Positions 28,662 to 64,000 of a stretch of 64,000 bases of DNA are shown here, one piece after another (position 1 is the stretch's first letter; each line of letters opens with the position of its first letter). The position numbers and the translations under genes are program-made. The notes beneath the pieces are model-generated. The model did not search any database. It saw nothing but the letters and a program-made list of their open reading frames with translations, and had not been told where the DNA came from. Location of the stretch: contig OZ025780.1 in assembly GCA_964019425.1 (NCBI GenBank), forward strand, positions 496,001-560,000, read 5' to 3'. Source of the stretch: Flectonema sp. DT1601 (Eukaryota).

Positions 28662-30463
<1,802 letters not shown>

Positions 30464-31169: not shown

Positions 31170-32968
<1,799 letters not shown>

Positions 32969-34422: not shown

Positions 34423-34754
34423 TTGGTTTTTTTTTAACTTTTTATTTTTTTGACTAATAGGAAGAGAGAGAGAGAGGGAAAAAAATTAAAAAATTTCACT
34501 TTCATCTTCAACAACATTATTTTTACCTCCCAAGGAAGTAATATTAAAAAAGGAACACAAAGTGGGAAATCCCGAGAAATATTCAACCACACGCTCTGAA
34601 TGCGGATGCAATACGTTTTTTTGTTTGTTTTTTTTTTTTTTTTTTTTTGCATTAATAAGTATAATAAGAACTAAAAAGAATGTTGGGGGGCAACACACGT
34701 AAATCTCCTTTAGCTTTATTAGTTTAAGTTGATTCACGGTTTCGTGCACAAATA

Positions 34755-34960
34755 AGAAATCACGGTCAGTGTTATATTACTATTGCAATGGATGATATTT
34801 AAATCTGTCAGTGAGTATCAATTGGTGGACAAGTCTGGTGCCAGCACCCTCGGTAATTCCAGCACCAATAGCGTATATTAATGCTGCTGCTGTTAAAAAG
34901 CTCGTAGTTGGATCCAGAGTACAAGTTACATCGGGCTTCCTCGGTGGTAGCTCCCGTACT
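34755..34960 (+). pseudogene. Isolated 18S (SSU) rRNA gene fragment; ends approximate
   Basis: CAAGTCTGGTGCCAGCACCCTCGGTAATTCCAGC...GCGTATATTAATGCTGCTGCTGTTAAAAAGCTCGTAGTTGGA (34830-34912) is the conserved 530-loop/pre-V4 region; flanks are not rDNA. Confidence 0.9.
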
Positions 34961-35939
34961 GGGGGTTATGATTGTTAAAGACTATTTTCTGTATAGTTCA
35001 AGAGAAAAGCCAATTCTTTTTTTTCCCTGGCACAATTTTTCCTCTTTGAATGTACGATAAGATGAAGTCGTTTAAACGATACAAAAAAAAAAAAAAAAAA
35101 AAAAGCAGCAGCAGCAGCTGTCAGATTTTTCTTCACTTGGCAGATTCCGTTTTCGACACCAGGGAAATAATACATTCAAGTTGGGGAGTATGTTCGATTT
35201 TGTCAAAATCACAACCGTGTTTGTATCATAAAACATAAAGATAATTTTAACATTAGTTTTTTAGATACATGTTGACTACGGGTGATGCGCAACTAAGCAT
35301 AATAAAGTAACTATTTAGGTTTCGAGAATAATCCATATACCTCTTTACCTCTATTCTCTCTCATCAGTATGGTGTAGAAGTAAGTCAGTCAAATGTTGAG
35401 ACTGAGTCATTCCAGTTTGCAGGACTGGAATGTAGTTACTTTAAGAAGAATTATTTTATAATTATAAAAAAAGAAGGGAAATTATATTTTTTTTGTCTTA
35501 TTGACCTTTAAGTGGGGGGGAGAATCGAAAAGAAGAAAAACGGAAAAAAAATAATAAGAGGTTCAACGATTAGCAGTTTATTAACACCAACGCCAAGAAA
35601 AACAGACAACACAACATATTTGTGTGAAAACAAAGGTTATTCACCGATCTTCGTCGGTGCAAACAGGAAAAAAAAGAAGAGAGGGGGAAAAAGAAAAAAA
35701 AGCATTGCGTTGAAAGCATTGTTCACGGTGGCCTAAAAACCTGTAATTTTTTTTTTTTCATTTTTTTTTTTTTTTATTGCACCGTAGTAATAAATAAAAA
35801 AAAAATAAAAAATAAAAAACAAGAAAGGTAATCGTTCAGTTAAAAATAGAAAATACCTGAACGAAGAAAAAAGAATATACAGCAGCAGTAACATAAGTGA
35901 TGTTGTAAATAAATAAATGAAACAAACAAAAAAAAAAAA

Positions 35940-37335
35940 GGGAAAAACTATAATTCCACAAAAAAGTTTCTGAAATGTCCGATCTCAACATGAAAGTTTC
36001 CGAAATGGACAGCTCCACACAAAAAAGTTTCCGAAATGGACAGCTCCACACAAAATAGTTTCCGAAATGGACAGCTCCACACACGAAAGTTTCCGAAATG
36101 GACAGCTGTTTTTTTTTTTTTTTATAGCTTACTGCCAGTGCATTTCGGGGTCGCCCAAAGTCATGGGGATTTTTTTTTCTCCCAAAAAAATTTTTTTTTC
36201 CTACATAAGGCAAGGCCATCCGACGAGATGAGTGAAATACACCGAACCTGTGTGACCTGGGCCTAGGACTGACTGCGCCCCTGGATCGGCATAGCTCGGT
36301 ATGTGCAGGGCCAGGTATAGGGATGGACGAATTTCGGGTAGAGACACTTGTCCCGACTTGTCAGCTCATACAACCATGAGAATTCAGAGTGTATTAAAAT
36401 ACTAGAGGTGCATCACAAGCGTCAGATAGGAGACAAGAGAAATCCAACATCATGAATCTTTAGAAGAGTGATACAGCTCGGTATGTGTGCAGGGCCGGGT
36501 CACCTACGCAGAGACAAGTCTCCGCTACACGTCGTACCAACCAAGATGAGGTATGAGAGCGCAAAAACCAAGTATACATGATCAGCGGCCTAGGGCTTGA
36601 CATGAATAGCTGTGGAGTGGCGAAACCATTTAGTGTTCTCAAGTCTGAGATCACCTCACTGAGCCACACAGTACTGTCCTTTCGGAGTTTCTGTGAAAGT
36701 AGCCCACGGAACACTTTTCTAAAGATTCAATCAGCCGAACTACTCCGCTACTGACTTTCACTTGATTAGCGAGCTACTAGTATATATTATTATGTCACCT
36801 GTTGAAGGAGTACTAAGAGGTTGATTCAGGCCCTGCACGTATTAGTTGTAATTACAGCACTTGCTTTACCTTAAATTACTCCTTCCCTCATTGAGAACCA
36901 ACCCATCTCGGCCATCCCGGTGTATTTGGGAACGAAGAAAAACCTTGTTTTCTTACCGAACAGCGAAAAATCCGAATATCACTTTCAGTGAATAGCGAAA
37001 GAAAAACTTTTCCGTTTACTGAACAGCGAAAATGAAATTACCTACCATAGCAATTTTATACAGGAAAAAAAAAGTTGTTCACTAGCGAAAAGTTTTTTTG
37101 GGTGCAGGCAACGGAGAAAAAAAAAAAAAAAATTCATTTTGCCAACAAAAAAAAAAAAAATTTTTTTTGCTGTCCATTTCGGAAACTTTCGTGTGTGGAG
37201 CTGTCCATTTCGGAAACTATTTTGTGTGGAGCTGTCCATTTCGGAAACTATTTTGTGTGGAGCTGTCCGTTTCGGAAACTTTCATGTTGAGATCGGACAT
37301 TTCAGTAACATTTACGTGGAATTAGAGGTTTTCCC
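35940..37335. mobile_element. Non-autonomous foldback/MULE-like TIR element (~1.4 kb) with 31-bp tandem subrepeats in the TIRs
   Basis: ~165-bp inverted termini GGGAAAA..TAATTCCAC...(AAAGTTTCCGAAATGGACAGCTCCACAC)n; poly-A on both flanks is compatible with a TSD in an A-run. Superfamily assignment is inference. Confidence 0.85.
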
Positions 37336-45264: not shown

Positions 45265-45695
45265 AGTGAACTTTTGATTCAGGCCCTTCCCATCGAACAG
45301 GACGAAGACTTCTAAAACCTGAGATGAACCAATTGAGTTGAAACAAACAAATAACAGAGACGCAACACATACCGGAACATCATCGCAAGCAATGCTTCGG
45401 ACCTCCGTCGACCTTCGTTCTTCCGGCGGCAAAAGGGAACAAGAAAGAACGGGCAATGAGACAAACCTGTTAGTTGGTGTTGTGTTGTTGTTAAAAACAA
45501 AAACATAAACGCCAGGAAGTTCGACAACGAAGACATCGACATCGATCGCTGCTCTGCAGATGTCCGGCGGGTGTTTGTCTACACTGTGTTTATTGTTTGT
45601 TTTTTTCCCAAGGTTCAACCTTGGGAAGAGAGGTAAAAAATTCCGTCAATGTTGGCCTTCCTGCTCGAAGGTGCGCACCAATGACGATAAATAGA
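45265..45695. repeat. ~430-bp segment repeated in inverted orientation at 51492-51920
   Basis: ORF-track peptides 45226-45618(-) and 51568-52098(+) are nearly identical; contains intron-like GT...AACAG segments. Confidence 0.9.
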
Positions 45696-46855
45696 GTGAC
45701 ATGGGCAGAAGGTTTGAGTCCGCCAGACACAGAAGAACATGAGGAAAATGAAACTCCGCCGAGAAAGTCTGAGCGTTCAACTCTGAAAAAACGAACCCCT
45801 CCATCAAGATATCGTTACAATCGAAGGAGATGTTCTGCTGATGACGTTCACGGTGACTCCACCCCCTTGTAATTCTCTTTTTCCTTACTTTCACATCACT
45901 TTGTTTATTTAGTTTTTTAGCTTATTTATTATTTATTGTTCGTTTTTGTTTGTATTATTTTATCGATATGTTTATGTCCGTCAGATCATAACGTTAATCA
46001 GGTTAATTGTTAATTGTTAATTGTAAATGGTCTCCATGGTGTCCAACTAAATTAAAGGACAAGTCTGGGATAATCCCTGCCAGAGGGGCGAGTATTCTAC
46101 CATGGTTGAAATACTCTGGCAACTGATCTTCAATTTTATGTTGTTTGTTAGCTGCTGGTGTATCTTGATCATGTGTTGATACTTGCATTTTTTTATTTGT
46201 AATCTTCTATTACAATTCTCTTTCTGTTCTGGTCTGTTACTTCATTTGTCTTGTTTAACTTCAGTTATATGCATTTTACTTTTTATTGTTTCCCATCTAC
46301 TTTTTATTTTCTATTAGTTCTGGTCAGAAACCCCTGGGCAGCAAGAAGGAAAGCAGTTAAGTACTTCTGGGTGTTTGGCATCACCCCCCATAGTGAGCAA
46401 GTACAACAGGTAGCATTGGTAGTCTGTTGATCCTGAGTGATCCCAGCTACAGTTTTGTTTTTCTTTCTTTTTTTAGAAGAAGATCAGGACATCCAAGCAC
46501 TGCTGGATAGTTGCTGAATGCAGGGCCTGCCTGTGGCATTATAATAACAGGCTAAGTCATTTGTAGTTCATAGTTTACCTTTGATTTTATAACTTCACAT
46601 AGGTACTATGAACGATGAGAGATCCAGTGGGATCACTCAGGGTCTAGTAGAGACCACCAATGTTGTGCGTTGATATGCAAGGTGACCAACCTTGACATTC
46701 TTTCTTTTCTCTCCTGTTGTGACAAACACAAAATACACACACAGCTTACAGTGTGTTCTTTGTGTATGTTTTCTTCAGGTGTGAGTAGTTTTTTTGTTCT
46801 TGCTCTTCAGGGAGGGCCTTAGCCAAAAGCTAACAGTCCAAATCTCACCTGGTAG

Positions 46856-47216: not shown

Positions 47217-47345
47217 ATCTCCCTGCTATCCCTCATATCCCCACAATAATATTATACCTTTTCATTTTCTCTTTCCTTTTCTGGTCTTTTTTTTTTTTTT
47301 TTTTTTTTTTTTCCTTTTTCATACAACGTTTTTTTATTTATATAT

Positions 47346-49120
47346 GAGGATGTGCAGAAACCCCCCCCCCAATTTTTACCAGGCTATCCCGTGGGCACCT
47401 AACACCCAATCCGAGCCCACCACCCCACGAAAATAGTATCCAAAAAACTCAAATCCGGTACTGGGGCACCCTTTTACTGCCCACCAGTTTAAAAATTTCA
47501 CTTTTTTGACTGTTTCTAGTAACATTTGCCTTGTAAGCTGTGTGGCACTGGTAGAAATTATGTTTGAAATTTTGTTTTTCTTGAAGGCCCAGATTTCCTG
47601 CGATTTAGATGCGAGTGTCAGCACAGATGTGATATTGCCAAAGTGTCAACCACATTCGGACTTGCCATGCCGACTAGGGAAAAAGTTAACCCAAGCTGAT
47701 TAACCTATTTTACAGAACAGGCTGATGACGGTTGTGTTCTCAAGGTGCCTACCAGCATCAGCCCAATAGTGAATCATCTTATCATTCTCAGACATCAAGA
47801 AGAACTTATTCATAACCTGATACGTTACTATCGCATTCTGGTTGATGTGTGGGAGTAGGAAGTTGTTATGGCCACACTGAACCTCAGTTCCAAACTGCTC
47901 ATGTAGTACACATCCAAGCAGACTATTTCCCCTGTTGATAGAAAGGGGAATTTGGCCCTTCTGTCATTAGAAGCCCTTTTCTTTATAATCCAGAGTCATG
48001 ATATAGTCACCAGGATGGATTAGATGTATCTTCTCAATACACCTGACATGTCTCTTATCTTCAATGTGAGAATCTATTTCAATAATTCCTCTCATTGTTG
48101 TTCGCTTCTCAGCTTCGGACTTTATGAGCGCCAGAAGGAAGTTACGATGATGTTGAAGGCCCCAGAGATCCACCCATTACGTCTGTCAACATCACAGATA
48201 CATGTGGCGAATACTGAAGATGCCGGGCAGGCAAGCTTCTTTCATGGATTCTTGTCGATGAGACGGTAGTTGCACACATTCGTACAGCGTCGTAACTGCT
48301 GAAACTCAACTCCAGGTAGAGAACAGTACTGTGTGTATGAGATAGTGTCTTTTAGAGGGGAGTTATTATCGACTAGTTGATACGAGGTCATCATGTTTTC
48401 AACAGTAACAGTAAAAGTAACTGCCTCTCTCCTTTTTTTGATACTTGGAGGAGTTTTATATTATGGTACCAATAATGGTTACCAGTTCTTATTGAACCTG
48501 ATTTTTCATGTCAGGTGTTACAACTGACAGGCAACCACTGACTCCACCTTCTTGTCCCTATTCTTCCACAATTCCTTTCCTACTACTATCCCAGTCTTAT
48601 TCACTTCTGCTATCCCCAGCCACTGGAACATAGAGCTTGTAGCGGCGTCCTCAAGCGGCTATAGATTCTAGAAAAACTCCAGTAATCCTGAGGGTGTACT
48701 TATTGTGAACAGCATGCTCACATTGCTCAATCATCACTGCCAGCAAGGGTGACTCAGAATCACCACCCGATATCGTACTCTGCAGTTCTCACGGGATCTA
48801 TGATTCTCCTGTCTCATCACTTCTCCTGTTCCTATCATTCCAGTCTTCATAGGAACCCAGGGTGTAAACAAATTTTTGCAATGTAGCTGCTAAGCTGGTT
48901 TTTGAGTATTTTGAGGGCAACCAACAGAGACACAAGGCAAAAGTACCAGAAACAGTCAAAAAATATAGAATTTTGAAACTGGTGAGCAGTTAGAGGATGC
49001 CCCAGTACCGGATTTGAGTTTTTTGGATAGTATTTTCGTGGGGTGGTGAGCTCGGATTGGGTATTAGGTGCCCACAGAATAGCCTGGTAAAAATTGGGGG
49101 GGGGGTTTCTGCACCGCCTC
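47346..49120 (-). mobile_element. Sola-like (Sola2-type) DNA transposon with decayed transposase, 1775 bp
   Basis: ~200-bp imperfect TIRs with GAG...CTC ends, 4-bp direct repeat ATAT; minus-strand remnant LDYKEK...HYWADAGRH...NFFPSRHGKSECG*HFG with in-frame stops (about 47630-48170). Confidence 0.8.
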
Positions 49121-49339
49121 ATATATATTTTTTTTTTTTTTTTTCATGTTTGATTATTTCCTCTTCATATTTTTTTCTTTTTTCTTTTCTTTCTTTTTTT
49201 TCTTTTTTTTCTCTGCCTCTCTCTTAATTCTGTTCGTTTCTTTGAAACGAAAATTCATTTGAATATTATTCCTTGGTCAGCAACCATCATTGTCGCCCTT
49301 TGGGCCTGTTAAAAAAAATAAAAAATAAAAAGAAAGTTT

Positions 49340-50162: not shown

Positions 50163-50900
50163 GCTAGGGACTCCACGAAGGAGGTCTCAAGAGTCGAGGA
50201 AAAGACAGAGCCAAGACCCCAGAGCCAACCCAAAACACATGGTAGAGGACGAGGGAGAACAAGAGCGGGAGCGAGGTTAGAAACGTGACCAAAGCCCCCT
50301 CGAAGCAGGAGACACAACCTGCAACCAGACCCCCCCAAAAAAAAAAAAAAACCCCCGGTCAACGAGGCAAACTCAGACCAGAACATGCTTTTCACCCCCC
50401 CCAGGAAACACCGACCAGTGGAGCCAAAGGCCGCACACATATTATAAAAATCAAAGGCCGCCCCCCAACCCAAGAAAAGGATGAAAAACTATCAAGCGAA
50501 AAAACTTGACGTCCGTACGCCCCAGAGAACAAAGGACGGACGACTCACACCCCCTTCTTTCGCCCCATTTTATTTACTGGTACAGCGACAAATGTAAAGC
50601 TGGGTAGACGACGAATTATTTTTTGTGCACAGAGACAAGGGATCCATGAGAACAAAGGATCAAGAGAAGAAGTGCACATTCCCCATCCCAAACCCAGAAA
50701 CATGAGAACTCATTAAATTGAAGGGTCATGTCTTTTCAAGTCGAAAAATGCTTAAATGCTAAAGAAGACTGTCGTCCCCAGCTCGCGGGTTTTCCCTGTC
50801 GCTGTATGTCGAGACAACGATCAGAGTCAGTAGAAAGATTGTACAAATTTGTTGTATAATGAGAAAGGACAAAGAGAGTAGTTTCCATTTTATCTTCCCG

Positions 50901-50964
<64 letters not shown>
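50163..50964 (+). mobile_element. 5'-truncated copy of the RLE retrotransposon (3'UTR plus poly(A))
   Basis: Reverse complement of 52717-53458 with scattered substitutions; ends TTATCTTCCCG plus A-tail 50901-50964. Confidence 0.92.
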
Positions 50965-50966
<2 letters not shown>

Positions 50967-51108
50967 AGTTCTAATCTGAAACACTAAATAAACTTGGCAA
51001 GAGGAAAAGAAAAGCCTTATGGTAAAAAAAGCTAAATATCATCATAATTTATTGGATTTGGTTCATATAGAAAATTATTTCACGTATTCCACCCACAGGG
51101 GGTTGTAG

Positions 51109-51146
51109 GGTCAGGGCCCCAGTAACTTAAAAAAAAAAAAAAATGG
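51109..51146 (+). repeat. 38-bp direct repeat, left copy (right copy 63959-63996)
   Basis: GGTCAGGGCCCCAGTAACTT(A)15TGG is identical at both positions. Confidence 0.92.
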
Positions 51147-51443
51147 CTGTCTATTTCGGAAACTATTTTGTGTGGAGCTGTTAGCAGATTATAGGTTTTC
51201 TACTGGAAAAAAAAAATTTTTTGCTGAAAAAATTTTTTTTGTTGCTGAAAAAAAAATTTTTGTTGCTGAAAAAAAAAATTTTTTTTTGCTGTCCATTTCG
51301 GAAACTTTCGTGTGTGGAGCTGTCCATTTCGGAAACTTTTTTGTGTGGAGCTGTCCATTTCGGAAACTTTTTTGTGTGGAGCTGTCCATTTCGCAAACTT
51401 TTGTGTTGAAATCCGACATTTCGCAAACTTTTTTGTGGAATTA
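51147..51443. mobile_element. Solo right-end TIR of the 35940-37335 element family
   Basis: GCTGTCCATTTCGGAAACT...GTGTGGA 31-bp subrepeats ending GTGGAATTA. Confidence 0.85.
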
Positions 51444-51491
51444 TCAGCTCGTGAAGGGATCCAGTTGGTTCAAAGGTTTTCTCCCCCCACT

Positions 51492-51920
51492 CTATTTATC
51501 GTCATTGGTGCGCACCTTCGAACAGGAAGGCCAACATTGACGGAATTTTTTACTTCTCTTCCCAAGGTTGAACCTTGGGAAAAAAACAAACAATAAACAC
51601 AGTGTAGACAAACACCCGCCGGACATCTGCAGAGCAGCGATCGATGTCGATGTCTTCGTTGTCGAACTTCCTGGCGTTTATGTTTTTGTTTTTAACAACA
51701 ACACAACACCAACTAACAGGTTTGTCTCATTGCCCATTCTTTCTTGTTTCCCTTTGCCGCCGGAAGAACGAAGGTCGACGGAGGTCCGAAGCATTGCTTG
51801 CGATGATGTTCCGGTATGTGTTGCGTCTCTGTTATTTGTTTGTTTCAACTCAATTGGTTCATCTCAGGTTTTAGAAGTCCTCGTCCTGTTCGATGGGAAG
51901 GGCCTGAACCAAAAGTTCAC
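51492..51920. repeat. Inverted copy of 45265-45695
   Basis: Direct comparison of the two segments. Confidence 0.9.
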
Positions 51921-52649
51921 TGCCCCTATTCCTTTCCCAAATCTCTTATCCATTGTTTTTCCCAAAAAAAAAAAAAGGAAAAGAAAAAAAAAATATGAAG
52001 AGGAAATAATCAAACATGAAAAAAAAAAAAAAAAAAAAAATATATACTGTAAATATTCTTGTGGGGAAAAACCCGCGAGTTTTTTTTATTTTTTCTAAAT
52101 CCGCGAGAATTTTTCCCCGCGAGAGTATTTCCCTGCCAGCATACATTTTTATACAGCCATTTTTTTAGTTCCTTTTTGTGGAGGAGTGAATAAATCAACA
52201 GGGGGGATAGGGGCTGGATCCTTTTGGGATCGGCCCTCCCTTCACTTCCGCTCTCCAACGGGGGTCGCATCCCAGCCAATCGTCAGCGAAGAAAAGATTG
52301 CAAGGCATCGGCAAGCAGGCACAAAGAAACACTTAAGAGGGTAATAGTACAAACCTGTTTATTTTGTTTTTTTTAGGCGATTAACTATGCCAGATGCCAA
52401 GCAAACCAAGCGAGTGACGATCAGCTTCCTTCAGAGGTGGAGGAGCAGCGGCAGTGTGGCAAACCTCCTCCTTCATCTGCATCCATGCTCCAGTGCAGGT
52501 GAGCCACTCTCTTCATCAAGTTGATGCTATCGCCTGTAACTGATGCATGTGACGTTATAGTCTATAGCCCGAAATTAAAAAAAAAGGAATAGTTTAAAAA
52601 AAAAAAAGATCTTAACTCATTGATATTGTTTCTGAGCCATTCTCTTTTC

Positions 52650-52707
<58 letters not shown>

Positions 52708-53453
52708 TTTTTTTTTCGGGAAGATAAAATGGAAACTACTCTCTTTGTCCTTTTTCATTATACTGTTAATTAGTACAATCTTTCTACTGACTCTGATCGT
52801 TGTCTCGACATACAGCGACAGGGAAAACCCGCGAGCTGGGGACGACAGTCTTCTTCAGCATTTAAGCATTTTTCGACTTGAAAAGACATGACCCTTCAAT
52901 TTAATGAGTTCTCATGTTTCTGGGTTTGGGAAGGGGGAATGTGCACTTCTTCTCTTGATCCTTTGTTCTCATGGATCCCTTGTCTCTGTGCACAAAAGAT
53001 AATTCGTCGTCTACCCAGCTTTACATTTGTCGCTGTACCAGTAAATAAAATGGGGCGTAAGAAGGGGGTGTGAGTCGTCCGTCCTTTGATCTCTGGGGCG
53101 TACGGACGTCAAGTTTTTTCGCTTGAAAGTTTTTCATCCTTTTCTTGGGTTGGGGGGCGGCCTTTGATTTTTATAATATGTGTGCGGCCTTTGGCTCCAC
53201 TGGTCGGTGTTTCCTGGGGGGGGTGAAAAGCATGTTTTGGTCCGAGTTTTCCTCGTTGACCGGGGTTTTTTTTTTTTTTTTTTGGGGGGGGTCTGGTTGC
53301 AGGTTGTGTCTCCTGCTTCGCGGGGGCTTTGGTCACGTTTCTAACCTCGCTCCCGCTCTTGTTCTCCCTCGTCCTCTACCATGTGTTTTGGGTTGGCTCT
53401 GGGGTCTTGGCTCTGTCTTTTCCTCGACTCTTGAGACCTCCTTCGTGGAGTCC

Positions 53454-56400
53454 CTAGCGCCTTCCCCCTTTCGACGAGAAGTCCAGGACCCTTCGCGTTG
53501 GATCCCCTTCTCTCTCCCTCATCTCTCCTTGGGTGCTTTTCTCACTCTGTGACGACGACCTTGTGACCAACTCTACTCCTGCCACACCTTGTCCGTCTCG
53601 CTCCGCCGGCTCCGGGCGTACGCCCGCGTCCGTGAACGAGGTCAGGGAGCCCGGGGGCCCGTGTGCGTACCCCATTGTGTCGGGTGTGTCTCCCTTACCT
53701 ACCCGACGCAGTGTGGGTTTCCTGTTGTAACTCCGCGGCGCCTGTTCCCTCGTGGTGCCCTCCACTGGCTCCGGTTCCTTCTGCTTGCGTCTCTTCCTCT
53801 TCGCTTTCCTGCTCGGGTCTGGGGAGAGAACCTCTATCCTCTCCCTCTCTTCTCCCTTCCTGTACCTCCTCCTCGCCTGCCGTTCACCTGAGCTCGGGGT
53901 GGACTCTCCCATTTCCGCCTGCAACACCTGCGGACTTGGGTCCTCCTTTCCGGCCCCCTTTGCCCCCGTCTTTGCCTTCCGGCCTCTCGTGCGTCCCCTT
54001 CCCGTATTTGTCTTCGGCGACACACACTCCTCCCTCTCCTCCTCCATTCCCTTTCTGTACTTCGTCCTCCCTCTCGTGCTCGGTGTCGACACCGTGCCCG
54101 GCGATCTCTCTGCGTCTTCCCCGCTCCCGTCACTACCCACTGCGCGTGGTCCCATCTTCGCCCCCAAACTGGATCTCTCGGCCATTGGTTTTGTTTCGCC
54201 TGAGTTCACCAGCTTTGAAAGGGGCTCCGATTGGCCCTCCCGTCGTGTTTCCGCGTTCCCCCCTTCTGGGTGTAGTCCCAGCATCCAGGCCATCTGACCT
54301 GCGTTCCCCTCGGGCGCCGCTCCCTCTTCCCATTCCTGTTCATCGACCGTCATGGTCATTTGGGAGTCTGACGATCCCTCCTCCTCTGTGTCCGACTCTG
54401 CCACCTGGACCACGTCCTCTGACGTCTCCTCGACGTACTGGACTACTGACCCTTCCGTCACATTTTCTCCGTCGACTTCCATCTCCGACTGTGAGTCTTC
54501 CAGGTCCTCCAACCCCTCCACTCCGTCCATGCCGTCTGACGACGGTGGTTCTCCTGAGTGGTGGGACGTCTCGTCCAGCTCGTCCCCCTTCTCGGCTTGC
54601 AGGTCCTCGGCCAGGTGATGGTTTTCGCCTGAGGTCTCTGCTGCCGACGGGTCTACTGACTGGTCCCTTTCGTCCGTCTGTTCTTCCGCTTCCATGTCCG
54701 ACGTCCCTGGACTCCCCAAGGAGCCTCCCGACATGGAACCGTTCCCTTCGTCCTGCCCTGTCGCTGGGGAGGATGATCTATCGTCATCTCCCTCCGACCC
54801 TTCCGAGCTCAACTCCAGGACTCCCGCCTCTACCCTTTGCACGGCCCCCTTCGGGGTTGGGACCGGGCTCTGCTCGTCTCGGCCCTCTACCCTCGCGTCT
54901 TCTCCTTCCACCGACTCTCGGCCGCCTGACGATCCCGTCCCCTCTTCTGTGTACTGGGGTTCCAGACGCAGTTGTCTTCCCTCCCACCGCATCGTGAAGG
55001 GACCCGTCTGTGTCCCGTGTCCCAGGCAGTTCTTTGCCCCCTCTGTGAAAACCTTCATCACGGCTTCCGTCACTGAGGTCGAGCCCTCCTTCGCCGCTTT
55101 TTCAGCCTCCTCCGTCGCGTGTGTTCTCATCCTCTCTGGCATCTCCACCAGCGTCGTACGCCTCCCCATCAACTCCGCCTCCTCCAGCACCTCTCTCTGG
55201 TCCGTCGACCAGTGTGTCGTGCTTCCTCGCAGCAGCAGGGATGCCTCCGCTGGGACGAGGCCTCCACACGCCTTGGCCGCTACCAGCCCCACCAGGGCTG
55301 CGAAGTATCGCCCCCAGTGTGTGTCTCCCGCTGGCAGGCCAGCTGACCATGTGCCCAACACCTCGAAACGGTGTGTGTCCAACCAGCTCGCCGCCGCCCC
55401 CAGACGGCCCGTTACCGGGTCTTCCTCGCATGCGTACACCAAGGTGTACCTCGTCCCTACTTCGCCAACCACCTCCCCCAGCAGGTGGGTTCGGAGGTAT
55501 CCCTCCGCCTCCCCCTTGCTTGCGAAACTCTTGTGTCTCGCCGCCGCGTAGCCTGACACCATCGAGTTCGCCTCGTTCCAGCATTGGAACAGGCCTACCG
55601 CCCTGCCCCTCGCCACTGCGTACCACTTACGTGGGCTGACACCCTCCGTGGCCCGGGTCGGTTCCCTGGTCTCCGGCTGCCACCTCTCTACGAACCTGTC
55701 CGCCTCCTTCCTGGAGGAGAAACTCTGGTGTGTCGCATTCGGGCACCCTTCCGTCTGTGCCTTCGCCTCCTCCCACGATGCATACACTCCCGGTTTCCAT
55801 CCCACCGCCACCGCATACAGCTTCTCCTCCTTCGACGGGGGGTCGGGGGATGGGGGCTCTTTTTCCTCGGGTTGTCCCACTTCCTGTGCTGGCTCGTCTC
55901 TCAGCCCTACTGCTTCCGCTCCTTGTGCGTCCGTCGTCCGCGCTTCCACCTGGGCTGGCGCTTCGGCTCGTGGTCTGTCTTCGCCTGATGCCGTCGACCC
56001 TCCTGGGAGCGACTGGGATTCATCCGGTTCCGCCGCCTTTCCCCTCAATTGGGACAGCCCCAGATTCATCTCCAGCTCGATCACCAAGTAGTCGAGCCCG
56101 TCCTCCGAGAGTTCCACCGGCTCGTCCCATGCCGCCGATTCCGCTTCCCAGAGGGCCAGGTTCTCCACCCCTCGTGAGCTTTCCGTCACCTGGTGTTCTA
56201 TCACCGACGGGAGCGCTACCAACTTCAGCGCCTCCTGCTGCTCGACTCCCCACCCCTGCTGCGGTGTGACCACCTCGATCTGTGTCTCACCCCCCAGCAG
56301 TTGCGATCTCTCCCTGATCGCGTTGAGCCCTAGCAGCGCTGCCACGTACTCCGCAGTCGCTTCGTCCCATGTCGGTAGGCAGCCCGACCACGTGAACCTC

Positions 56401-59400
56401 CTGTCGAGCGTTCCCATGTGTATCAGGCATGCCGCCGCCCCCAGCTTCTCCATCTCCGCGTTCCAGACGCTCGATACCAGTAGGAGCAGCTTGCGCTGTG
56501 CCTGCCCCCCTGTTACTCGCGTCCGGAGGACACACTCCGCCTCTTCCCTGGACGTGTACCCCGCGGTGTCCTCCTCCGACGGCGGTGCCTCGCGTACCTC
56601 CATCCGGTCCTTGTTCGCCACCGGAATCCATCTCACCGGCACCCCGACGTCCTCTTGGGTCGATCCCTCCACCCTCGAGTAGACCACTACTACTGGTTTC
56701 GTCCCGTGGATCTCCTCTGTCGACACTTGGCTTATTGCCTTGTCGTCTTGCTTCTGCCAGCCTACTCCGTCCCACGTGTATGACACGTAATGCCCCGCGT
56801 TGTCACTCCCGAGGTGTGCGATCGCTCCCGTTTGCTGGTACGTCATCACCCTCTCCCCGACCTGCACCTGGAAGCGCTCTTCCCATCCCAAGGACCCTTG
56901 CGTGTCCTGCTTGTCTCTCTGGAAGATCAAGGAGCTTGGGAGCGAGGCGAAACTCTCTTCCAGCGTGGCCTCATTGCTGCCGCACAGCTTCTCGCAGGAC
57001 CGCTCGACTCTCTCCTTCGTCGGCTGAAGCCTCACTTGTGGTGTACGGCCACACAGTGGGATCAGCGTCAACTCATCCGTCGATCCGGAGGCGTCCGCAC
57101 ATCCCGTGCAGACCAGCTGTTTCAGCTGTACTGCCGAGAACAACGGTTCGCACACCTCTTTCTTCTCCTCCAACAGGGCGTCTACTATGGACGTCAGGGT
57201 TCCTACTACCTCCCCCTGCCGCCTGTCTTGTAGCGGGTCGAACATCTCGGACAGCTTCTCCAGGCACTCCCCACTCCCTTTGACCACTCCACTCAGGAGG
57301 CCCGACATCCCCACTTCCTCCTTCCCCGTCAGCACTTGTGTCAGTGCCGTGCCCTTCAGCAGGCACTGTACGGACGCGTTGAGGTAGCAGGAGTTCCCGA
57401 TGTTCGGCAAACCTCTCATCGTCGGGGGCGGTCCTGCCGACTGTCGCATTACTTCCGGCTGCTGGATCTCTTCCGTTTCCGCTCTCGGTCTTGGTTCTCT
57501 CTCTTGTGATGTCGGCTTCTCCGTCATCTCGGGCGGCGGTTTCGTCCTTGGCAATGGGTTCACTGAGTCCATCGCCACCGACGCCTCCCTCGCTCTCAGT
57601 GCTTCCGCCGTCGCCACTACCACCGATGTCGAGATCCTCCTCGCCATCTCCCCCGCGATCTCCCGGTGTGGCACCGTCGAGTTCGTTGCGCAGATCTGCA
57701 CCAACTTCTTCAGGGTCCCCACTGCTTCCCGTCCCATCCCTCCGTACGCTTCCAGCGCAATTGTCGAGAAATTAATCCCGTGTTTCGTGCACTGCTCCGC
57801 GTACTTGTTCCCTTTCAGGGACTCTGCTTCTCTCGCGGCTTGCCCCGGGGTTTTATACAATTTAATTTTCCCCGGGTTTACCACTGTGATGTCGAAGGCT
57901 CTGCCTCTCCCCTCCCTCAGCCCCTCTTGGCAGTACCAGTCCCCCGGTCTCTGCTTGTTGGGTCCCAGTAGGTGGCTGGGTTCTCTCAGCAGCGGCAATC
58001 CCGCCTGCTTAAAGATGGAGATGAACTCCTCCTTCACCCTCTCGTGTCGCTGGTGCACGTGGCCGTTTTTGATACAGATTGAGGCATGGTATCCCTGCCT
58101 ATCCTGTGGGCCTGAGCATATCCTGCATACTGCCCCTTCCGCGAACAGCGCTGCGCCCAATCGCATCCCACATGCGATCCTGAACGTCTCTGGGTCCATC
58201 GCGCACTCTTCATCTGCTTGTTGCAGCCATGCGCTCGCCTTATCCATGCGCAGGGAGAGCAGCCTCCCTTTATCGCGCGGGTCATTCGCCCCCGCCAGCA
58301 GGCAGTCTCTCTTGACCTGGTCCAGTTTCGCCGAGGACAGCCTCTGGGGGTTCGGCCCCGGCCCGTCTTCTTCTATCCTTAGCTCCTCCGGGAGGGCGAG
58401 GTTCAACCCCTTCTTCAGTGCTGGCATCAGCACCCCCTTGAACCCCTCCCACAGTGACTTGCTCACCCCTTGGACTAATTCCAGGGATCCCAATAGTGCT
58501 GCTCCCCTGTGCTCTGCACATGACCGCAGCCCCAATCCCCCCATCCGGGTCGGCAGTTGTGCTTGCATCCACTTTGGCCCCTCCAGTGTCAGGCCCAACA
58601 CTCGGCTCGCCGTGGACCTCATCAGCTCGTCCACCTTCCGCATCGAGGTGTCCATTTTCCCATGCGTGCAGCATCGCATCAGGTGGGTCACCTTGCAGAA
58701 GCCCATGCATTGCCTTAGGAGCACCATGGCCACCTGCCGGTCCTGCAGGTCTGCTAGCAGCTCCGCTTTCTTCTCCAGCTGCGCCACCTTCCTGTCGACG
58801 AACTCCTGGCAGTGTTCCTCCGTCCCGAACGGTGCCCCCAGGAAGTCCCCGTTGTACAGTGGGGGTCTCATCCCTTCCAACCCCCACCCCAAGGGCAGGG
58901 TGTTCTGGGCTGAGTCGAGCACGTGCGTCTGGCACTTGTCCGGCCTCAGCGTCAGCCCCAGCTCCGCCGTCTCCTTCTGCAGGATTTGGAGGGCCTTGTC
59001 TACCTGTTCCAGGGTGCCCGCCACCAGCCCATCGTCCAGGTAGAAGCACGCCAACTCCGGCTTCGCCTCCAACACCTTCTGCAGCGCCGGCTTGATTGCC
59101 AACGAGAACAGCAAGGGACCCAACGGATCCCCCTGCTGAGCGCCCTCCTCCGAGCTCAGCCTCTCGTCCCCAAACAGCAACCACGTCGGCGCTCCGTAAC
59201 ACCAGCTGACCCAGCTCTCCAGCAGGGTATCCCTCGTCGAATCCAGGAACGCCCCCCTCTTCACGCAGTTGAAGGCGTTCGAGAAGTCTATCTTCACGAA
59301 CACTTTCTGTGACGAGAGCGCGTGCTCCGCGCGGAACTCATGCAGGGTGTGCACCGCCGCCTCCACTCCCCCCGACACCGCTACTCCCAGCTGTCTCACT

Positions 59401-61976
59401 TCTAGCAACGAGCTCCTCGCCTGGGACCTGTATGCCCCGCACAGGATCTTCGCCACCAGCCGCCTCCATGTTTCCCCCACCGCGACTGGCCGGTGCTCCC
59501 CCGGCTTCCCTTCTTTCTCCAGCGCCGTCAGGTTCGCCCCCGCCAGCAGCGGCGCTACTTCCCGCGGCGCCCTCCCGTTCGCCAGAATCCTCACCACCTC
59601 CGTGATCGAGGCTACCAGCCCCGGCACCTCACCCCGCTCCACCACGTCCTTCAGGTGTTGCGGCGCGAGGCCCGAAGGCCCTCCACTCGACCCCCTGTGG
59701 AAGGAGCGTAGGCATGCTAGCAGCTCCACCTCTGCTATCTGCACCTCCTGCCCTGCCGTGGCCGATGGGGGTCCGCTCGCCCTCGGGTGTAGGGTGCGCA
59801 TCTGCTCCAGCACCTTCTCGGTTCGTTCTGCTGGCGGCGGCGCGTCTAGGGCCGAGATCGCCTGTGACAGGCAACCCTCCCTCGCTAGCGACGTGGCCCT
59901 GTCGTTCCTTCCTTTTTGCCCCGCCTCTTTCACTGCTGGCCTTCCCGTCGCCTTGCGGGGGGCCGCCGCTTTCCACAGTCCCTCAAATTCCCCCCGAATC
60001 CATGCTTGCAGGTCGTCGACCGCCCCTGTCAGCTCGCTGGTCGACAACCTCCTACCCCCCCTCCGTATCCTCCGCAGTGTACAAGTCGGGAGCATCAAGA
60101 GCAGCTTCCATGCCCACTCATCGTTCCGCTCCACGACTAGGTCGAGCGACAGCTTGAGTGCTCGCCCCAGATGATGCAACAGGGACACCGGCAGCTTCTT
60201 CGCTATCGGCCTCCTCCTGCTGGCTATTTCCTCCAAAGAGGGGAAGCTCTGGCTCTCCAGCACCCGCTTCCGGAACGCCGTGTACACGTCCCCCAGTTGG
60301 ACCTTCTGCAGTTTCTCACTGCACCCCGGATGCATCGGCTGGTCCTGCCCGATGATCCCACAGCACACCGGACATTCCCGGAGGCCTAGCCTCGCCAACT
60401 GTCCATGCGTCAGCGGGTTGCCACTGAATGCGTGCTCGTCCACGTGTCTTAGGAGCTCCGCCCACTCCTCGAAGCCTCCCTTGTGTTTCGGGCACTCCGC
60501 TTGGGGGCACTCGTGCAGCTGGGCCTGTCGGGAGGCTGTCTGCAGCACTGCCGGCTCGCCTCCTGCTGCTTGCGACAGCGGGCCTGGCGACACTAACTCC
60601 AACCTCCGGGCGCTCTGTAGCAGCCGCGCGACGCAGTCCTCGGATGCCTCCACTGGGTCGTAGTGACACCCGTTCTGCAGGGTCAAGACCAGCGTCTGCT
60701 TCGGGTCCGATGGCCCTTCCACCACCAGCGTTTCCGTCCTCACCACGACGACGAAGCGGCACTGTAGGTCCTCTGCCATGACCTGTAGGGCCAACGCATC
60801 GCCCCAGCATCCATCTTCTTCTAACGCCCTCGCATATACTCCGAATGCGTTCGCGTCCTGGAAGAAGACCTCGAACCTTTCCCTGTTCTTGGTCAGGTAC
60901 CCTGCCGTTCTCCTGCGGAGCTCTCCATGTCTGCCCTTCCACCCCTCTGGCGTCTCTAGGAGTTGGCACACACTCCTGAACAGGCAATTCCCATCCCCAA
61001 TCACCCGAAATACTTTTGCTCCCTCGCACTTCAGGCTTGCCAGTTCCGGCGCGGGTCCCGTCGCTACCCCCAGCCGTCCCTTGAGGTCCAACATCTCCCG
61101 ACACCTCACTGTCTGGTGCACCAATCCGGTACTCAGCTCCCCGCAGGCCTTGCAGATCTGCTTTCCGAGTCTGTCGGAAGCCATCTGGGCCGTTACCTCC
61201 CCCGGTACCACTCCCTTCAGGTGTTGTTTGAAGTGGTACTCTAGGTCACCCCTCACCCAGACGCTGCACCCCACCACCGGGCACTTCGTCCTCTCCTTGC
61301 TTTGCCCTCCTCCTGCCAGGTCTGACGGCCTCGCATACCATGGTCTGGGCTCCGCCTTGTGCCCTCCTGGCTTTGTCCAGTCCCTTTCGGGCCCTGCCCG
61401 TCGCTTCTTCGGTGTCTCCGCCTTGTTCTTCCTTGGCCTCTCTGTCTCCGCGCGGAATCTCTCTCGCCTGGCGTGGAACTTCTCCAACTCTCCCGCCCAC
61501 CGCTCCCACCTCTCCTGCCGTTCCTTCAGCAGCTTCCTCCTCCTCCTTTCCAGCCGCCTTGCCGCCTTGGACGCCACTTTCGGGGACGCCCTCTTCAGGA
61601 GCTCCCTTCCTCCCTTGTCTGGAGGTGGCTTTGGGTGGTCTCGCCTCACCCGGTTCCCGGCCGTTTCCGTTCCCCTCCGCGGGACCCACACCCCCTCTCG
61701 TCCATGTTGGAAAGCGCGTCCGCTTGCCGTATTGTTGGGGCTGTTTGAGCTGTTGGGGGTTACAAATGGGTGCGGGGGGATCGGGCGTGTTACGCGTCGG
61801 CTGATGCGCGATGAAAACAGTGGGCCTTTGTCCAGCGTTGTGAATAGAGGGGTGTGCCATCCGCCTGGCACTGGGGCTAACCTCTGCTTACCCACTCCGG
61901 ACGTCTGTTGCGCCCTCGTTCCACTTAGTAGTGCCCACAGCAGCACGTACCCACACAGTAACATTGTTTTCTCCAT
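53454..61976 (-). CDS. Retrotransposon polyprotein (~2840 aa): ZnF - OTU - ZnF - RT - CCHC - RLE - USP - RNaseH-like - 2x RNase H1 hybrid-binding - RNaseH-like - acidic tail
   Basis: First in-frame ATG 61976 (MEKTMLL). RT: HRPVAVGE, KIDFSNAFN, QQGDPLGPLLF, FYLDD, GGLG. CRIC..HASIC; RH..RPGD..FDITV..K..KY (RLE). GDGNCLFRS..HYD (OTU). GLPNIGNSCYLN..GHYVSY..QDD (USP). YAVAVGWKPGVYASW and YAVARGRAVGLFQCW. Confidence 0.95.
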   Translation of the reverse strand: MEKTMLLCGYVLLWALLSGTRAQQTSGVGKQRLAPVPGGWHTPLFTTLDKGPLFSSRISRRVTRPIPPHPFVTPNSSNSPNNTASGRAFQHGREGVWVPRRGTETAGNRVRRDHPKPPPDKGGRELLKRASPKVASKAARRLERRRRKLLKERQERWERWAGELEKFHARRERFRAETERPRKNKAETPKKRRAGPERDWTKPGGHKAEPRPWYARPSDLAGGGQSKERTKCPVVGCSVWVRGDLEYHFKQHLKGVVPGEVTAQMASDRLGKQICKACGELSTGLVHQTVRCREMLDLKGRLGVATGPAPELASLKCEGAKVFRVIGDGNCLFRSVCQLLETPEGWKGRHGELRRRTAGYLTKNRERFEVFFQDANAFGVYARALEEDGCWGDALALQVMAEDLQCRFVVVVRTETLVVEGPSDPKQTLVLTLQNGCHYDPVEASEDCVARLLQSARRLELVSPGPLSQAAGGEPAVLQTASRQAQLHECPQAECPKHKGGFEEWAELLRHVDEHAFSGNPLTHGQLARLGLRECPVCCGIIGQDQPMHPGCSEKLQKVQLGDVYTAFRKRVLESQSFPSLEEIASRRRPIAKKLPVSLLHHLGRALKLSLDLVVERNDEWAWKLLLMLPTCTLRRIRRGGRRLSTSELTGAVDDLQAWIRGEFEGLWKAAAPRKATGRPAVKEAGQKGRNDRATSLAREGCLSQAISALDAPPPAERTEKVLEQMRTLHPRASGPPSATAGQEVQIAEVELLACLRSFHRGSSGGPSGLAPQHLKDVVERGEVPGLVASITEVVRILANGRAPREVAPLLAGANLTALEKEGKPGEHRPVAVGETWRRLVAKILCGAYRSQARSSLLEVRQLGVAVSGGVEAAVHTLHEFRAEHALSSQKVFVKIDFSNAFNCVKRGAFLDSTRDTLLESWVSWCYGAPTWLLFGDERLSSEEGAQQGDPLGPLLFSLAIKPALQKVLEAKPELACFYLDDGLVAGTLEQVDKALQILQKETAELGLTLRPDKCQTHVLDSAQNTLPLGWGLEGMRPPLYNGDFLGAPFGTEEHCQEFVDRKVAQLEKKAELLADLQDRQVAMVLLRQCMGFCKVTHLMRCCTHGKMDTSMRKVDELMRSTASRVLGLTLEGPKWMQAQLPTRMGGLGLRSCAEHRGAALLGSLELVQGVSKSLWEGFKGVLMPALKKGLNLALPEELRIEEDGPGPNPQRLSSAKLDQVKRDCLLAGANDPRDKGRLLSLRMDKASAWLQQADEECAMDPETFRIACGMRLGAALFAEGAVCRICSGPQDRQGYHASICIKNGHVHQRHERVKEEFISIFKQAGLPLLREPSHLLGPNKQRPGDWYCQEGLREGRGRAFDITVVNPGKIKLYKTPGQAAREAESLKGNKYAEQCTKHGINFSTIALEAYGGMGREAVGTLKKLVQICATNSTVPHREIAGEMARRISTSVVVATAEALRAREASVAMDSVNPLPRTKPPPEMTEKPTSQEREPRPRAETEEIQQPEVMRQSAGPPPTMRGLPNIGNSCYLNASVQCLLKGTALTQVLTGKEEVGMSGLLSGVVKGSGECLEKLSEMFDPLQDRRQGEVVGTLTSIVDALLEEKKEVCEPLFSAVQLKQLVCTGCADASGSTDELTLIPLCGRTPQVRLQPTKERVERSCEKLCGSNEATLEESFASLPSSLIFQRDKQDTQGSLGWEERFQVQVGERVMTYQQTGAIAHLGSDNAGHYVSYTWDGVGWQKQDDKAISQVSTEEIHGTKPVVVVYSRVEGSTQEDVGVPVRWIPVANKDRMEVREAPPSEEDTAGYTSREEAECVLRTRVTGGQAQRKLLLLVSSVWNAEMEKLGAAACLIHMGTLDRRFTWSGCLPTWDEATAEYVAALLGLNAIRERSQLLGGETQIEVVTPQQGWGVEQQEALKLVALPSVIEHQVTESSRGVENLALWEAESAAWDEPVELSEDGLDYLVIELEMNLGLSQLRGKAAEPDESQSLPGGSTASGEDRPRAEAPAQVEARTTDAQGAEAVGLRDEPAQEVGQPEEKEPPSPDPPSKEEKLYAVAVGWKPGVYASWEEAKAQTEGCPNATHQSFSSRKEADRFVERWQPETREPTRATEGVSPRKWYAVARGRAVGLFQCWNEANSMVSGYAAARHKSFASKGEAEGYLRTHLLGEVVGEVGTRYTLVYACEEDPVTGRLGAAASWLDTHRFEVLGTWSAGLPAGDTHWGRYFAALVGLVAAKACGGLVPAEASLLLRGSTTHWSTDQREVLEEAELMGRRTTLVEMPERMRTHATEEAEKAAKEGSTSVTEAVMKVFTEGAKNCLGHGTQTGPFTMRWEGRQLRLEPQYTEEGTGSSGGRESVEGEDARVEGRDEQSPVPTPKGAVQRVEAGVLELSSEGSEGDDDRSSSPATGQDEGNGSMSGGSLGSPGTSDMEAEEQTDERDQSVDPSAAETSGENHHLAEDLQAEKGDELDETSHHSGEPPSSDGMDGVEGLEDLEDSQSEMEVDGENVTEGSVVQYVEETSEDVVQVAESDTEEEGSSDSQMTMTVDEQEWEEGAAPEGNAGQMAWMLGLHPEGGNAETRREGQSEPLSKLVNSGETKPMAERSSLGAKMGPRAVGSDGSGEDAERSPGTVSTPSTRGRTKYRKGMEEEREECVSPKTNTGRGRTRGRKAKTGAKGAGKEDPSPQVLQAEMGESTPSSGERQARRRYRKGEERERIEVLSPDPSRKAKRKRRKQKEPEPVEGTTREQAPRSYNRKPTLRRVGKGDTPDTMGYAHGPPGSLTSFTDAGVRPEPAERDGQGVAGVELVTRSSSQSEKSTQGEMREREGDPTRRVLDFSSKGGRR

Positions 61977-61979
61977 TCT

Positions 61980-62016
<37 letters not shown>

Positions 62017-62127
62017 ACTCTTCCTTTTCCGTTCCCTTCGCTGTGGATGATTTGTGTATGGAACCCGAAAAAAGACAATCGACTTACCTGCTCTTCTCCT
62101 TGTTAGCCCTGTACGTGTGTGTGGAGT

Positions 62128-62182
<55 letters not shown>

Positions 62183-62349
62183 CCGGCTCGCGTATCCTCC
62201 GCTTTCCGAACTCTTCTGTCTATGCGGTCACCCCCGTACAGTTCCGACGCAGAATGGTAGTCACCACCACAGGCACCAAACAAAGCTAGTGAGAGAGTTC
62301 TTCCTTCTCCTCTCCCGCAGGCTGATTCGTAAAGTTTTGTCTTAAAAGA

Positions 62350-62650
62350 GAGTTTTAACAAGAACAAAAAAAGGATATGCTCTGTTTGCAGGTCTTAAAA
62401 GCAAAGTTTAAACGAGAACAAGAAAAGATATGTTCTTCTCGCGCGCTGACTAGCGGAAGACCGTGTATCAAAGCAGAGTTTAAACAAGAACAAAAAAAAA
62501 AAAAAAGGATTTGTTCTTTTCGCTGTCTTAAGCGGTGTTTAAACGAGAACAAGAAAAGATATGTTCTGTTCGTGCGATGTTTTGCGGAAGACCGTGTCTC
62601 AGTGTAGTCTTAACGAAGAACAAAAGAAAATATTTGTTCTGTTTGCGCGT
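62350..62650. repeat. Degenerate ~60-70-bp tandem repeats upstream of the retrotransposon ORF
   Basis: TTAAAC(A/G)AGAACAA..AAA.GATATGTTC-like motif about five times. Confidence 0.75.
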
Positions 62651-62887
62651 TCACCAGCGGTCCAGTCTCCAGAAAAGATGAGAAGGACGTATGAGCTGGA
62701 GGAATAATTAACTTTTGACAAAAGCAAAGTACTCTCGAAGACAACTCGAATCAGAATGCAGGTGGGGAAAATTTCAACTCCCTCTTCAGCAGAGCAAGGT
62801 TTCCACAGCAACAACAATTATCCGCGCCTTCAATGTCCGTTTGTGACTGCTGGCCGACTCAAAGCGTTCGTAGACCGAAGATAGATG

Positions 62888-62918
<31 letters not shown>

Positions 62919-63002
62919 TCCTACCCCGCCGATGTACTAGAGCTTACTGAAGGACCCGCGTTTATCTCCTCCTCTGCAAGTATGCCTATGCAAAATCTAA
63001 TT

Positions 63003-63034
<32 letters not shown>

Positions 63035-63159
63035 CCTCTTTCTTCCTTAGTATTTTCTAAATAAACAACGACAAGTAATACCAAATTCTTCTAAATAAAT
63101 ATGACCTAATTAATATATATAATAAACAATAAATAAAAATTTTTTTCAACAATATACTT

Positions 63160-63213
63160 TGGCGCAGTGGTTTTTGTCACCGTCTGTCTTCTGGTCCACC
63201 TGGGTTCAATACC
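63160..63213 (+). promoter_or_regulatory. tRNA-like A-box/B-box pair
   Basis: TGGCGCAGTGG (63160-63170) and GGTTCAATACC (63203-63213) fit Pol III type-2 consensus; no full cloverleaf. Confidence 0.45.
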
Positions 63214-63277
63214 CTGTGGGGGTCGGGGGGCGACGGGGGCGACTTCTGCGACTTAAAAGACTTTAAAGCGCTAAGCG

Positions 63278-63923
63278 CTTCGCTACACGAACACGAGTGT
63301 GTCACGTGGCTGCCGCCGATTTCTTCTTTTGTTGGGGTGGGGGAGGGTGGATGGGGTGAGCGTGGGGAAGGGTGGTCGGGTTGTGGGATCCGCTTGCGTG
63401 GAAAAATTCCTAGCTGCGCTTTCCTACTCGCTGACGGGGATGGGGCGAGGGAGGGAAAAAACTGTGAAGAAGATGTTTTAATTTAACAATAACAAAAATG
63501 TACTCTAATGTAGACAGATAAATGTAACAAAATAACAGATAGTAACAGAATATACAGACAGATAAACAGACAGATAAACAAACAAATAAATAAGCAAATA
63601 AACAACAATCTAAGAGAGGAATGAAATTAAGAGGAAGTAATTAACAAAAGTAAACAAATAAATAAGGAAGAAGAAGGTCAGTCACATACACCGTCTCTTC
63701 TACGTCGTCGTCGTCGTCGTCTTCGAAGTCGCCGAAACGCTTCGCTACACGAACACGAGTGTGTCACGTGGCTGCCGCCGATTTCTTCTTTTGTTGGGGT
63801 GGGGGAGGGTGGATGGGGTGAGCGTGGGGAAGGGTGGTCGGGTTGTGGGATCCGCTTGCGTGGAAAAATTCCTAGCTGCGCTTTCCTACTCGCTGACGGG
63901 GATGGGGCGAGGGAGGGAAAAAA
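63278..63923 (-). repeat. Two direct copies of a ~185-bp GC-rich unit (63278-63461, 63738-63923) separated by a pyrimidine-rich (minus strand) spacer
   Basis: CGCTTCGCTACACGAACACGAG...GGGGCGAGGGAGGGAAAAAA occurs twice. Confidence 0.95.
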
Positions 63924-63961
63924 CAATAAAGTACAGAAACTGTAGCTTTAGAATCGTTGGT
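63924..63961 (-). other. Retroposed spliced-leader (mini-exon) sequence, diplonemid type
   Basis: Minus strand ACCAACGATTCTAAAGCTACAGTTTCTGTACTTTATTG; the 3' half CAGTTTCTGTACTTTATTG is the conserved euglenozoan SL; followed by TTTTTTCCC, not by the GT donor of an SL RNA gene. Confidence 0.93.
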
Positions 63962-64000
63962 CAGGGCCCCAGTAACTTAAAAAAAAAAAAAAATGGTTTT

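Follow-up and report, generated by a model that had tools for sequence, protein, structure and literature searches.

A genomic spliced leader fused to a duplicated splice-acceptor unit upstream of a CRE-like non-LTR retrotransposon

The window analysed here is a 64,000-nt stretch of Flectonema sp. DT1601 (contig OZ025780.1, positions 496,001 to 560,000), and all coordinates below refer to it. Its minus strand carries one open reading frame (ORF) of 2,840 amino acids counted from the first Met (53454-61976), which encodes a polyprotein with a reverse transcriptase (RT) and a restriction-like endonuclease (RLE). The ORF comprises zinc-finger-like motifs, an OTU domain, the RT (RVT_1 at residues 863-1061), a CCHC and RLE motif, a UCH/USP domain and two RNase H1 N-terminal (Cauli_VI) domains. 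The endonuclease motif at residues ~1326-1404, C-x2-C-x9-H-x3-C-x8-RHE...E...RPGD...D, is near the SLACS/CRE pattern given in the relevant part of PMC12857005, with RHE in place of RHD/N and small differences in spacing. All PDB matches of the ORF were R2 proteins, and the homologues found were almost all without a name. The ORF is followed by a 3’ UTR and poly(A) tail (52652-53453, minus strand; A-run 52716-52652). The element thus combines a single ORF, in which the RT precedes the CCHC and RLE motifs, with N-terminal zinc-finger-like motifs, repeat regions and a 3’ poly(A), all of which characterize the CRE clade, and the best reading of its sequence is a CRE-like non-LTR retrotransposon. 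The two deubiquitinase-like domains of the polyprotein (OTU and UCH) carry Cys and His motifs, and its N-terminus is hydrophobic and signal-peptide-like.

The ORF belongs to a protein cluster of 35 members. Among the 15 listed members, each located on a contig of different size, 12 are 96.7-99.7% identical and two are 94-95% identical, while a large internal stretch is deleted from the representative. Two of the 15 are of full length; in most, the N-terminal part is absent. From these sequences we judge the ORF family to be young and dispersed. The window itself contains an inverted, 5’-truncated copy (50163-50968, plus strand) consisting of the 3’ UTR and A64 at 97% identity, which begins at a 5-nt microhomology and has a possible 4-nt target site duplication (TSD) on both sides. 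No relatives of the RT were found in viral contigs.

Upstream of the ORF and on the same strand, the order is a flank, a 38-nt spliced leader (SL), a unit A, a spacer B ending with CTTCACAG, a second unit A and further leader sequence. The original prediction read this arrangement as a genomic SL fused at a trans-splice acceptor beside an unspliced twin of the same unit, and its coordinates for both junctions were right: the SL meets the first unit A at 63924/63923 (...ACTTTATTG/TTTTTTCCC), and the acceptor meets the second at 63462/63461 (...CTTCACAG/TTTTTTCCC). The unit, put at ~185 nt and repeated ~460 nt downstream, turned out to be 186 nt long (copy 1, SL-fused, 63738-63923; copy 2, behind the intact AG acceptor, 63276-63461), with identity between the copies over all 186 nt and a period of 462. 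Likewise, the ~2 kb given for its distance to the co-oriented ORF corresponds to 1,985 nt from the SL start to the first Met at 61976. Spacer B (276 nt, 63462-63737) consists of 48 nt, a donor-like GTATGT at 63689 and a 228-nt tract (54% T, 26% GC) whose T-rich sequence, ending in CACAG, directly precedes unit A copy 2. Host genes have short GT-AG introns, and their inferred acceptors read ACAG in all four and CACAG in three of the four introns picked by hand in this window. Judged from its sequence, spacer B may be either an outron or a retained cis-intron.

The SL therefore replaces the AG acceptor to the nucleotide, as had been predicted, in front of an identical twin of unit A. The last G is common to the SL (TG) and the acceptor (AG), which is the expected outcome of trans-splicing, and an exact swap of this kind on an identical twin is the trace that a reverse-transcribed trans-spliced RNA leaves. 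We consequently regard the junction as very probably the mark of a trans-spliced RNA that was reverse-transcribed, and this part of the original prediction is well supported. A relict-SL retrocopy would have a DNA-encoded SL exactly at a trans-splice acceptor and a fully processed body; the first is present here, whereas the body still contains spacer B and a second donor-like site. For unit A itself, a small-protein gene, a known non-coding RNA and a ribozyme were considered and dropped: it has stops in all six frames, no Rfam match at E values up to 5 and no folding signal (z 0.25). It had no matches in metagenome contigs and none in viral contigs.

The genomic SL (63961-63924, minus strand) comprises nt 2-39 of a 39-nt euglenozoan SL, with the first 5’ A absent. 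The full 39-nt form with the extra A occurs in SL RNA genes of other loci and in one contig of another run (X4), and the window SL equals nt 2-39 of the SL in both marine and freshwater SL RNA gene loci. Its 3’ motif occurs once in the window against a chance mean of 0.01 (100 shuffles). One published leader of 39 nt, ‘Euglenozoa 14’, is presumably attributed to Diplonema. The SL differs from this leader, as listed in part of PMC3795323, at 2 positions. Together with the short introns of the host genes, the SL points to a diplonemid, a marine protist, as the most likely host.

In 49 fetched loci we counted 54 SL matches, none of them near an RT, and GT came next in 32 of the 54. GT also follows the SL in the X4 contig. 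In the window, the SL is followed by unit A and not by GT and an SL intron, and it was accordingly rejected as an SL RNA gene. The 22 matches without GT form a different group: 20 of them have an AAAA(T)TGA motif ~20 nt upstream, a motif seen in 0 of the 32 GT matches. The flank of the window SL does not contain this motif either, and a DNA-encoded SL of giant-virus type was dropped as well. We also considered that the element might have inserted site-specifically into an SL RNA gene in the manner of SLACS, CRE and CZAR, so that the SL would be target sequence, a thought invited by the CRE-like RLE motif and the presence of the SL beside the element. However, the SL is complete and runs straight into unit A, neither a further SL fragment nor an SL intron occurs in the window, the flank upstream of the SL does not resemble what precedes the SL gene in X4, and family members lie on many different contigs (15 contigs of different sizes among those listed). 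Insertion at a fixed SL-gene position is thus largely refuted and would be most surprising, and the contrast with SLACS, CRE and CZAR drawn in the original prediction holds.

Between the second unit A and the ORF lies the remaining 5’ leader (61977-63275, minus strand). It contains no ATG, and has four A-runs of 29-52 nt each on the sense strand, degenerate ~126-bp repeats (62630-62338) and a donor-like GTAAGT at 62087. A possible 47-nt cis-intron (62041-62087, minus strand; CAG/GTAAGT ... CCACAG) is retained just 5’ of the start codon. The 1,485 nt that separate the acceptor at 63461 from the first Met contain 0 ATG, compared to 19 on the opposite strand and a mean of 9.8 in shuffled sequence (0 of 1,000 shuffles as low). 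The whole 1,985 nt from the SL to the first Met contain one ATG (shuffle mean 14.2, 0 of 1,000 as low), while all 202 control windows, which overlap one another, contain at least 12. ATG is by ratio the most depleted of the 64 triplets in the leader. The ATG-free run from 63686 to 61977 (1,710 nt) is the longest on either strand of the window, the next being 970 nt, and terminates at the start codon of the ORF; the 3’ UTR of the element has 11 ATG and no depletion. The sole leader ATG lies within the donor-like GTATGT at 63689; either trans-splicing at 63461 or cis-splicing of 63689-63462 would remove it.

A second line of evidence comes from a leader segment (62377-62604, a spurious plus-strand frame), which is present on 13 contigs. 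Among the seven such contigs listed, two (779,553 and 769,174 nt) equal in size two of the 15 listed contigs of the RT cluster, a match of size and not of adjacency, for which some chance overlap is expected with large contigs. The segment lies ~670 nt downstream of the unit, and the match does not cover the unit. Profile searches found only this segment and one unrelated repeat protein and are uninformative on the copy number of the unit; none of ten ORFs taken from the unit, the leader and the extended ORF was present in the protein collection by exact look-up. The link between unit and retrotransposon, which the original prediction only assumed, is now backed by the ATG-free leader reaching the first Met and by the multi-copy leader segment, while co-location on the same contigs extends to contig size and not to adjacency. 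On these grounds unit A and its SL are, with good probability, linked to the neighbouring retrotransposon. The reading that we prefer, and consider likely, is that the SL-unit is the 5’ end of this non-LTR element, whose host-trans-spliced RNA would have been reverse-transcribed up to its capped end with the second acceptor retained.

The four sense A-runs between unit and ORF tell against this reading, being also expected of a chimera formed by template switching. In that case, SL-A-B-A-C, where C is the segment after the second unit, would come from a partly processed RNA of a host tandem array ending at an A-run (for example 63034-63001). It would have been retrotransposed separately, as a one-off retrocopy, or have become attached to the element when the RT switched templates. 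The R2 RT is known to jump between templates end to end, according to the title of a reference in PMC3636483. Consistent with a separate array, the 462-bp unit closes on itself (63737 joined to 63276) in contigs of three of four other runs (X2, X3 and X4), and arrays of it may thus be present independently of the element; this counts for the chimera and against our preferred reading. The four runs are among five that were listed for the window, all with a share below 0.2 and none of them RNA. The cycle fits a longer (A-B)n array inside or outside the element, but a repeat of two copies whose ends are clipped, collapsed in the contig graph, produces it as well. In X3 and X4 the cycle occurs without real cover of the ORF, and in X1 and X2 the ORF cover is patchy; missing cover and contig depth in these four runs were not taken as evidence, and no copy number was drawn. 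Between spacer B and segment C, no significant homology appeared (162 of 500 local shuffles). Against the chimera, the depletion of ATG continues through each of the four A-runs as far as the first Met, with 0 ATG in the 818 nt from 63000 to 62183 (shuffle mean 6.0, 0 of 1,000 as low), and the sequences after the internal A-runs match the 5’ flank over at most 5 nt. A-runs of at least 20 nt occur 24 more times in this window besides those of the leader. A chimera or separate retrocopy is, in our estimate, improbable.

The outer boundaries of the element were compared for a target site. The 5’ flank (63959-63996, minus strand) is a 38-nt sequence identical to 51109-51146 (minus strand), 1.5 kb beyond the poly(A) and next to an element with 31-nt repeats, whose 36-kb copy ends in similar sequence. 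The 38-nt flank may thus be a member of a repeat family. The element with 31-nt tandem repeats is short and has three copies in the window (35940-36124, 37124-37335 and 51146-51444). No clean TSD pairing the SL junction with the poly(A) of the full copy was found, which is a difficulty for a complete insertion running from SL to poly(A), as is the recurrence of the flank beside a repeat family, and which suits the chimera. A 9-nt match between the sequence after the poly(A) and that at 61981 was discarded as a TSD, since an equal match occurs in 9 of 64 control flanks and another full-length copy has the same Met start. The last three nucleotides of the flank (ACC) overlap the start of the SL: base 1 of the SL is absent, and the three bases after it are shared with the target, giving a 3-nt microhomology. 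This structure supports an element 5’ end, since microhomology is likewise found where the truncated sister copy begins. The missing base and the shared ACC would fit an RT that stopped near a modified cap, followed by joining through microhomology; the cap chemistry of the SL is known from trypanosomatids.

The junction is known from one 5’ end in one assembly, which weakens our preferred reading and leaves room for an assembly or library artefact such as a cDNA chimera; among the contig pieces listed from the other runs, none bridges 63924/63923. On the other side, the SL is internal and stands behind a 38-nt genomic repeat that is also present elsewhere in the window, to which it is joined by microhomology. 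We consider such an artefact highly improbable.

If the SL-unit is the 5’ end of the element, the cycle could proceed as follows. First, a parent copy would be transcribed by read-through within a polycistronic unit. Second, the host would add the SL at an AG of the tandem A-B repeat, which would form the 5’ end of the element. Third, the ribosome would scan the ATG-free leader up to the ORF. Finally, the RT would copy the RNA by target priming, starting at the poly(A) and ending at nt 2-5 of the SL; the cDNA would be joined to the target via the 3-nt microhomology. In Diplonema papillatum, transcription is polycistronic and essentially all mRNAs carry the SL, as described in part of PMC10161547. 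For the present copy, the SL would have been added at the upstream acceptor, and the next spacer and acceptor would have been kept, leaving the copy still spliceable. The parent would then need at least two acceptors and be spliced at the upstream one, its daughter retaining one, while splicing at the last acceptor would leave a copy without any. Each round of transposition would use up one acceptor; therefore, the array must regrow, or the AG inside the genomic SL must be used. The RNA intermediates, the use of the acceptors, the regrowth of the array and the lack of an internal promoter are all inferred. The wider proposal, in which the element is autonomous and promoterless, its 5’ end is defined by trans-splicing and the tandem acceptor cassettes are consumable and restored by array expansion, we put forward tentatively, as somewhat less than an even bet. 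That the element may lack a promoter and that the duplicate may keep new copies spliceable had been suggested in the original prediction, which overlooked the loss of one acceptor per round, the donor-like site in the spacer and the tandem repeats already described for CRE-type elements. The same reserve applies to an adaptive, family-wide role of the spare acceptor, which is conceivable and yet doubtful.

The required regrowth of the array and the chance that spacer B is an ordinary cis-intron both weigh against our preferred reading. In a further alternative, the unit is indeed the 5’ end of the element while its twin is there by accident, as a common 5’ tandem repeat or an exon-intron duplication such as other CRE-type elements have. 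The SL would then be there because every host mRNA has one, and the element might have its own promoter or reuse the AG of the relict SL. Several precedents can be named from the parts of the sources that bear on this: internal repeat regions in trypanosomatid CRE elements (PMC12278014), 5’ VNTRs in FoTeR/MoTeR (PMC12857005), an SL on ~30% of Iso-Seq reads from Hydra transposable elements (PMC12220107) and an internal promoter in trypanosomatid L1Tc. The donor-like site of spacer B points the same way. Against it, the boundary of the repeat coincides exactly with the acceptor, and a read-through transcript needs just the portion that was kept, the spacer. An incidental twin seems to us rather unlikely, and because this alternative shares the linkage of unit and element with our preferred reading, the confidence placed in the two overlaps.

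Each ingredient of the arrangement has a precedent. Trypanosomatid members of the CRE clade (SLACS, CZAR, CRE1 and CRE2), in those parts of PMC12278014 and PMC3447711 that describe them, resemble the window element in having a single ORF with RT and RLE, zinc-finger-like motifs, poly(A), repeat regions and a reliance on the host SL system. They occupy a fixed position in SL RNA genes, and SLACS transcription starts at +1 of the interrupted SL gene (in the part of PMC3447711 concerned), whereas the window family is dispersed and its SL apparently RNA-derived at an acceptor. The window element further differs from the trypanosomatid elements, as partly described there, in its OTU, UCH and RNase H1 N-terminal domains. 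In dinoflagellate relict-SL retrogenes (PMC12014239 and PMC3942190, in the sections on these genes), a retroposed RNA likewise has a DNA-encoded SL as its 5’ end; what is carried there is host mRNA, and the relict SL is trimmed off by re-splicing, while the cargo here is apparently an autonomous element with a separate downstream acceptor. The fungal CRE-related elements FoTeR and MoTeR have tandem repeats within long 5’ UTRs, and their RLE motif is similar, but they are telomere-targeted and, in the part of PMC12857005 that covers them, have no SL. In D. papillatum, likely of the same host group, a large SLACS-like RT family (OG0000024), which may or may not be orthologous to the window ORF, is listed with 745 proteins in supplement 5 of PMC10161547; its 5’ ends are not described in the part of the paper concerned. 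A term search of the supplement files of PMC10161547, possibly excluding its long supplementary document, found no SL text. We found no report of a genomic non-LTR copy in which an RNA-derived SL forms the start and is followed by a retained acceptor, nor the combination of these ingredients in print, in a literature search that mostly did not extend to subscription and older papers.

How a non-LTR element regains, with every new copy, a 5’ end that can be transcribed is a long-standing question. Internal promoters, ribozymes and insertion downstream of a host promoter are among the known solutions. Host trans-splicing with a spare acceptor would, if true, be another. In the 5’ monomer arrays of mouse L1, tandem units ensure that a copy made from a shortened RNA keeps its expression signal; those monomers are promoters, whereas the unit described here would supply a splice acceptor, making it a splice-site counterpart of promoter-monomer arrays. 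Such a mechanism, if confirmed, would also bear on the dispersal of hundreds of SLACS-like RTs in diplonemids and offer SLACS-like elements a route out of the SL gene array into the polycistronic genome. Since the SL marks the true start of the RNA, full-length insertions can be delimited exactly.

The search for SL loci also yielded a side finding that may be even more striking than the main one. In giant-virus-like DNA, the same 39-nt SL as that of the window is hard-coded ~20 nt behind AAAA(T)TGA, which we take to be an early-promoter motif, and an ATG follows shortly after. This arrangement was seen in loci L001-L004 (IMGVR_UViG_3300046534_001516), L008, L009, L013, L014, L021, L022, L026-L028, L036, L039, L045, L047 and L048. 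One giant-virus-like contig of 238 kb has matches to VLTF3, an A32-like protein and a poly(A) polymerase subunit. These sequences suggest that viruses of diplonemid-like hosts mimic or capture SL mRNAs. A separate locus (L018) has a tandem SL-SL in the first 54 nt of its contig (minus strand), ahead of an ORF, with the first two bases missing from the second SL; by its sequence it looks like a recycled mRNA, retroposed and re-spliced, in a euglenozoan.

Elsewhere in the window, a decayed fragment of eukaryotic SSU rRNA (Rfam RF01960) lies at 34710-35124 on the plus strand. Further dispersed repeats pair 45265-45698 with 51488-51921 and 47339-47534 with 48932-49127. In the regions 16577-26338 and 28659-32971, a gene unit of 3,277 bp is present in three nearly identical tandem copies, and ATP synthase beta genes form a tandem pair.
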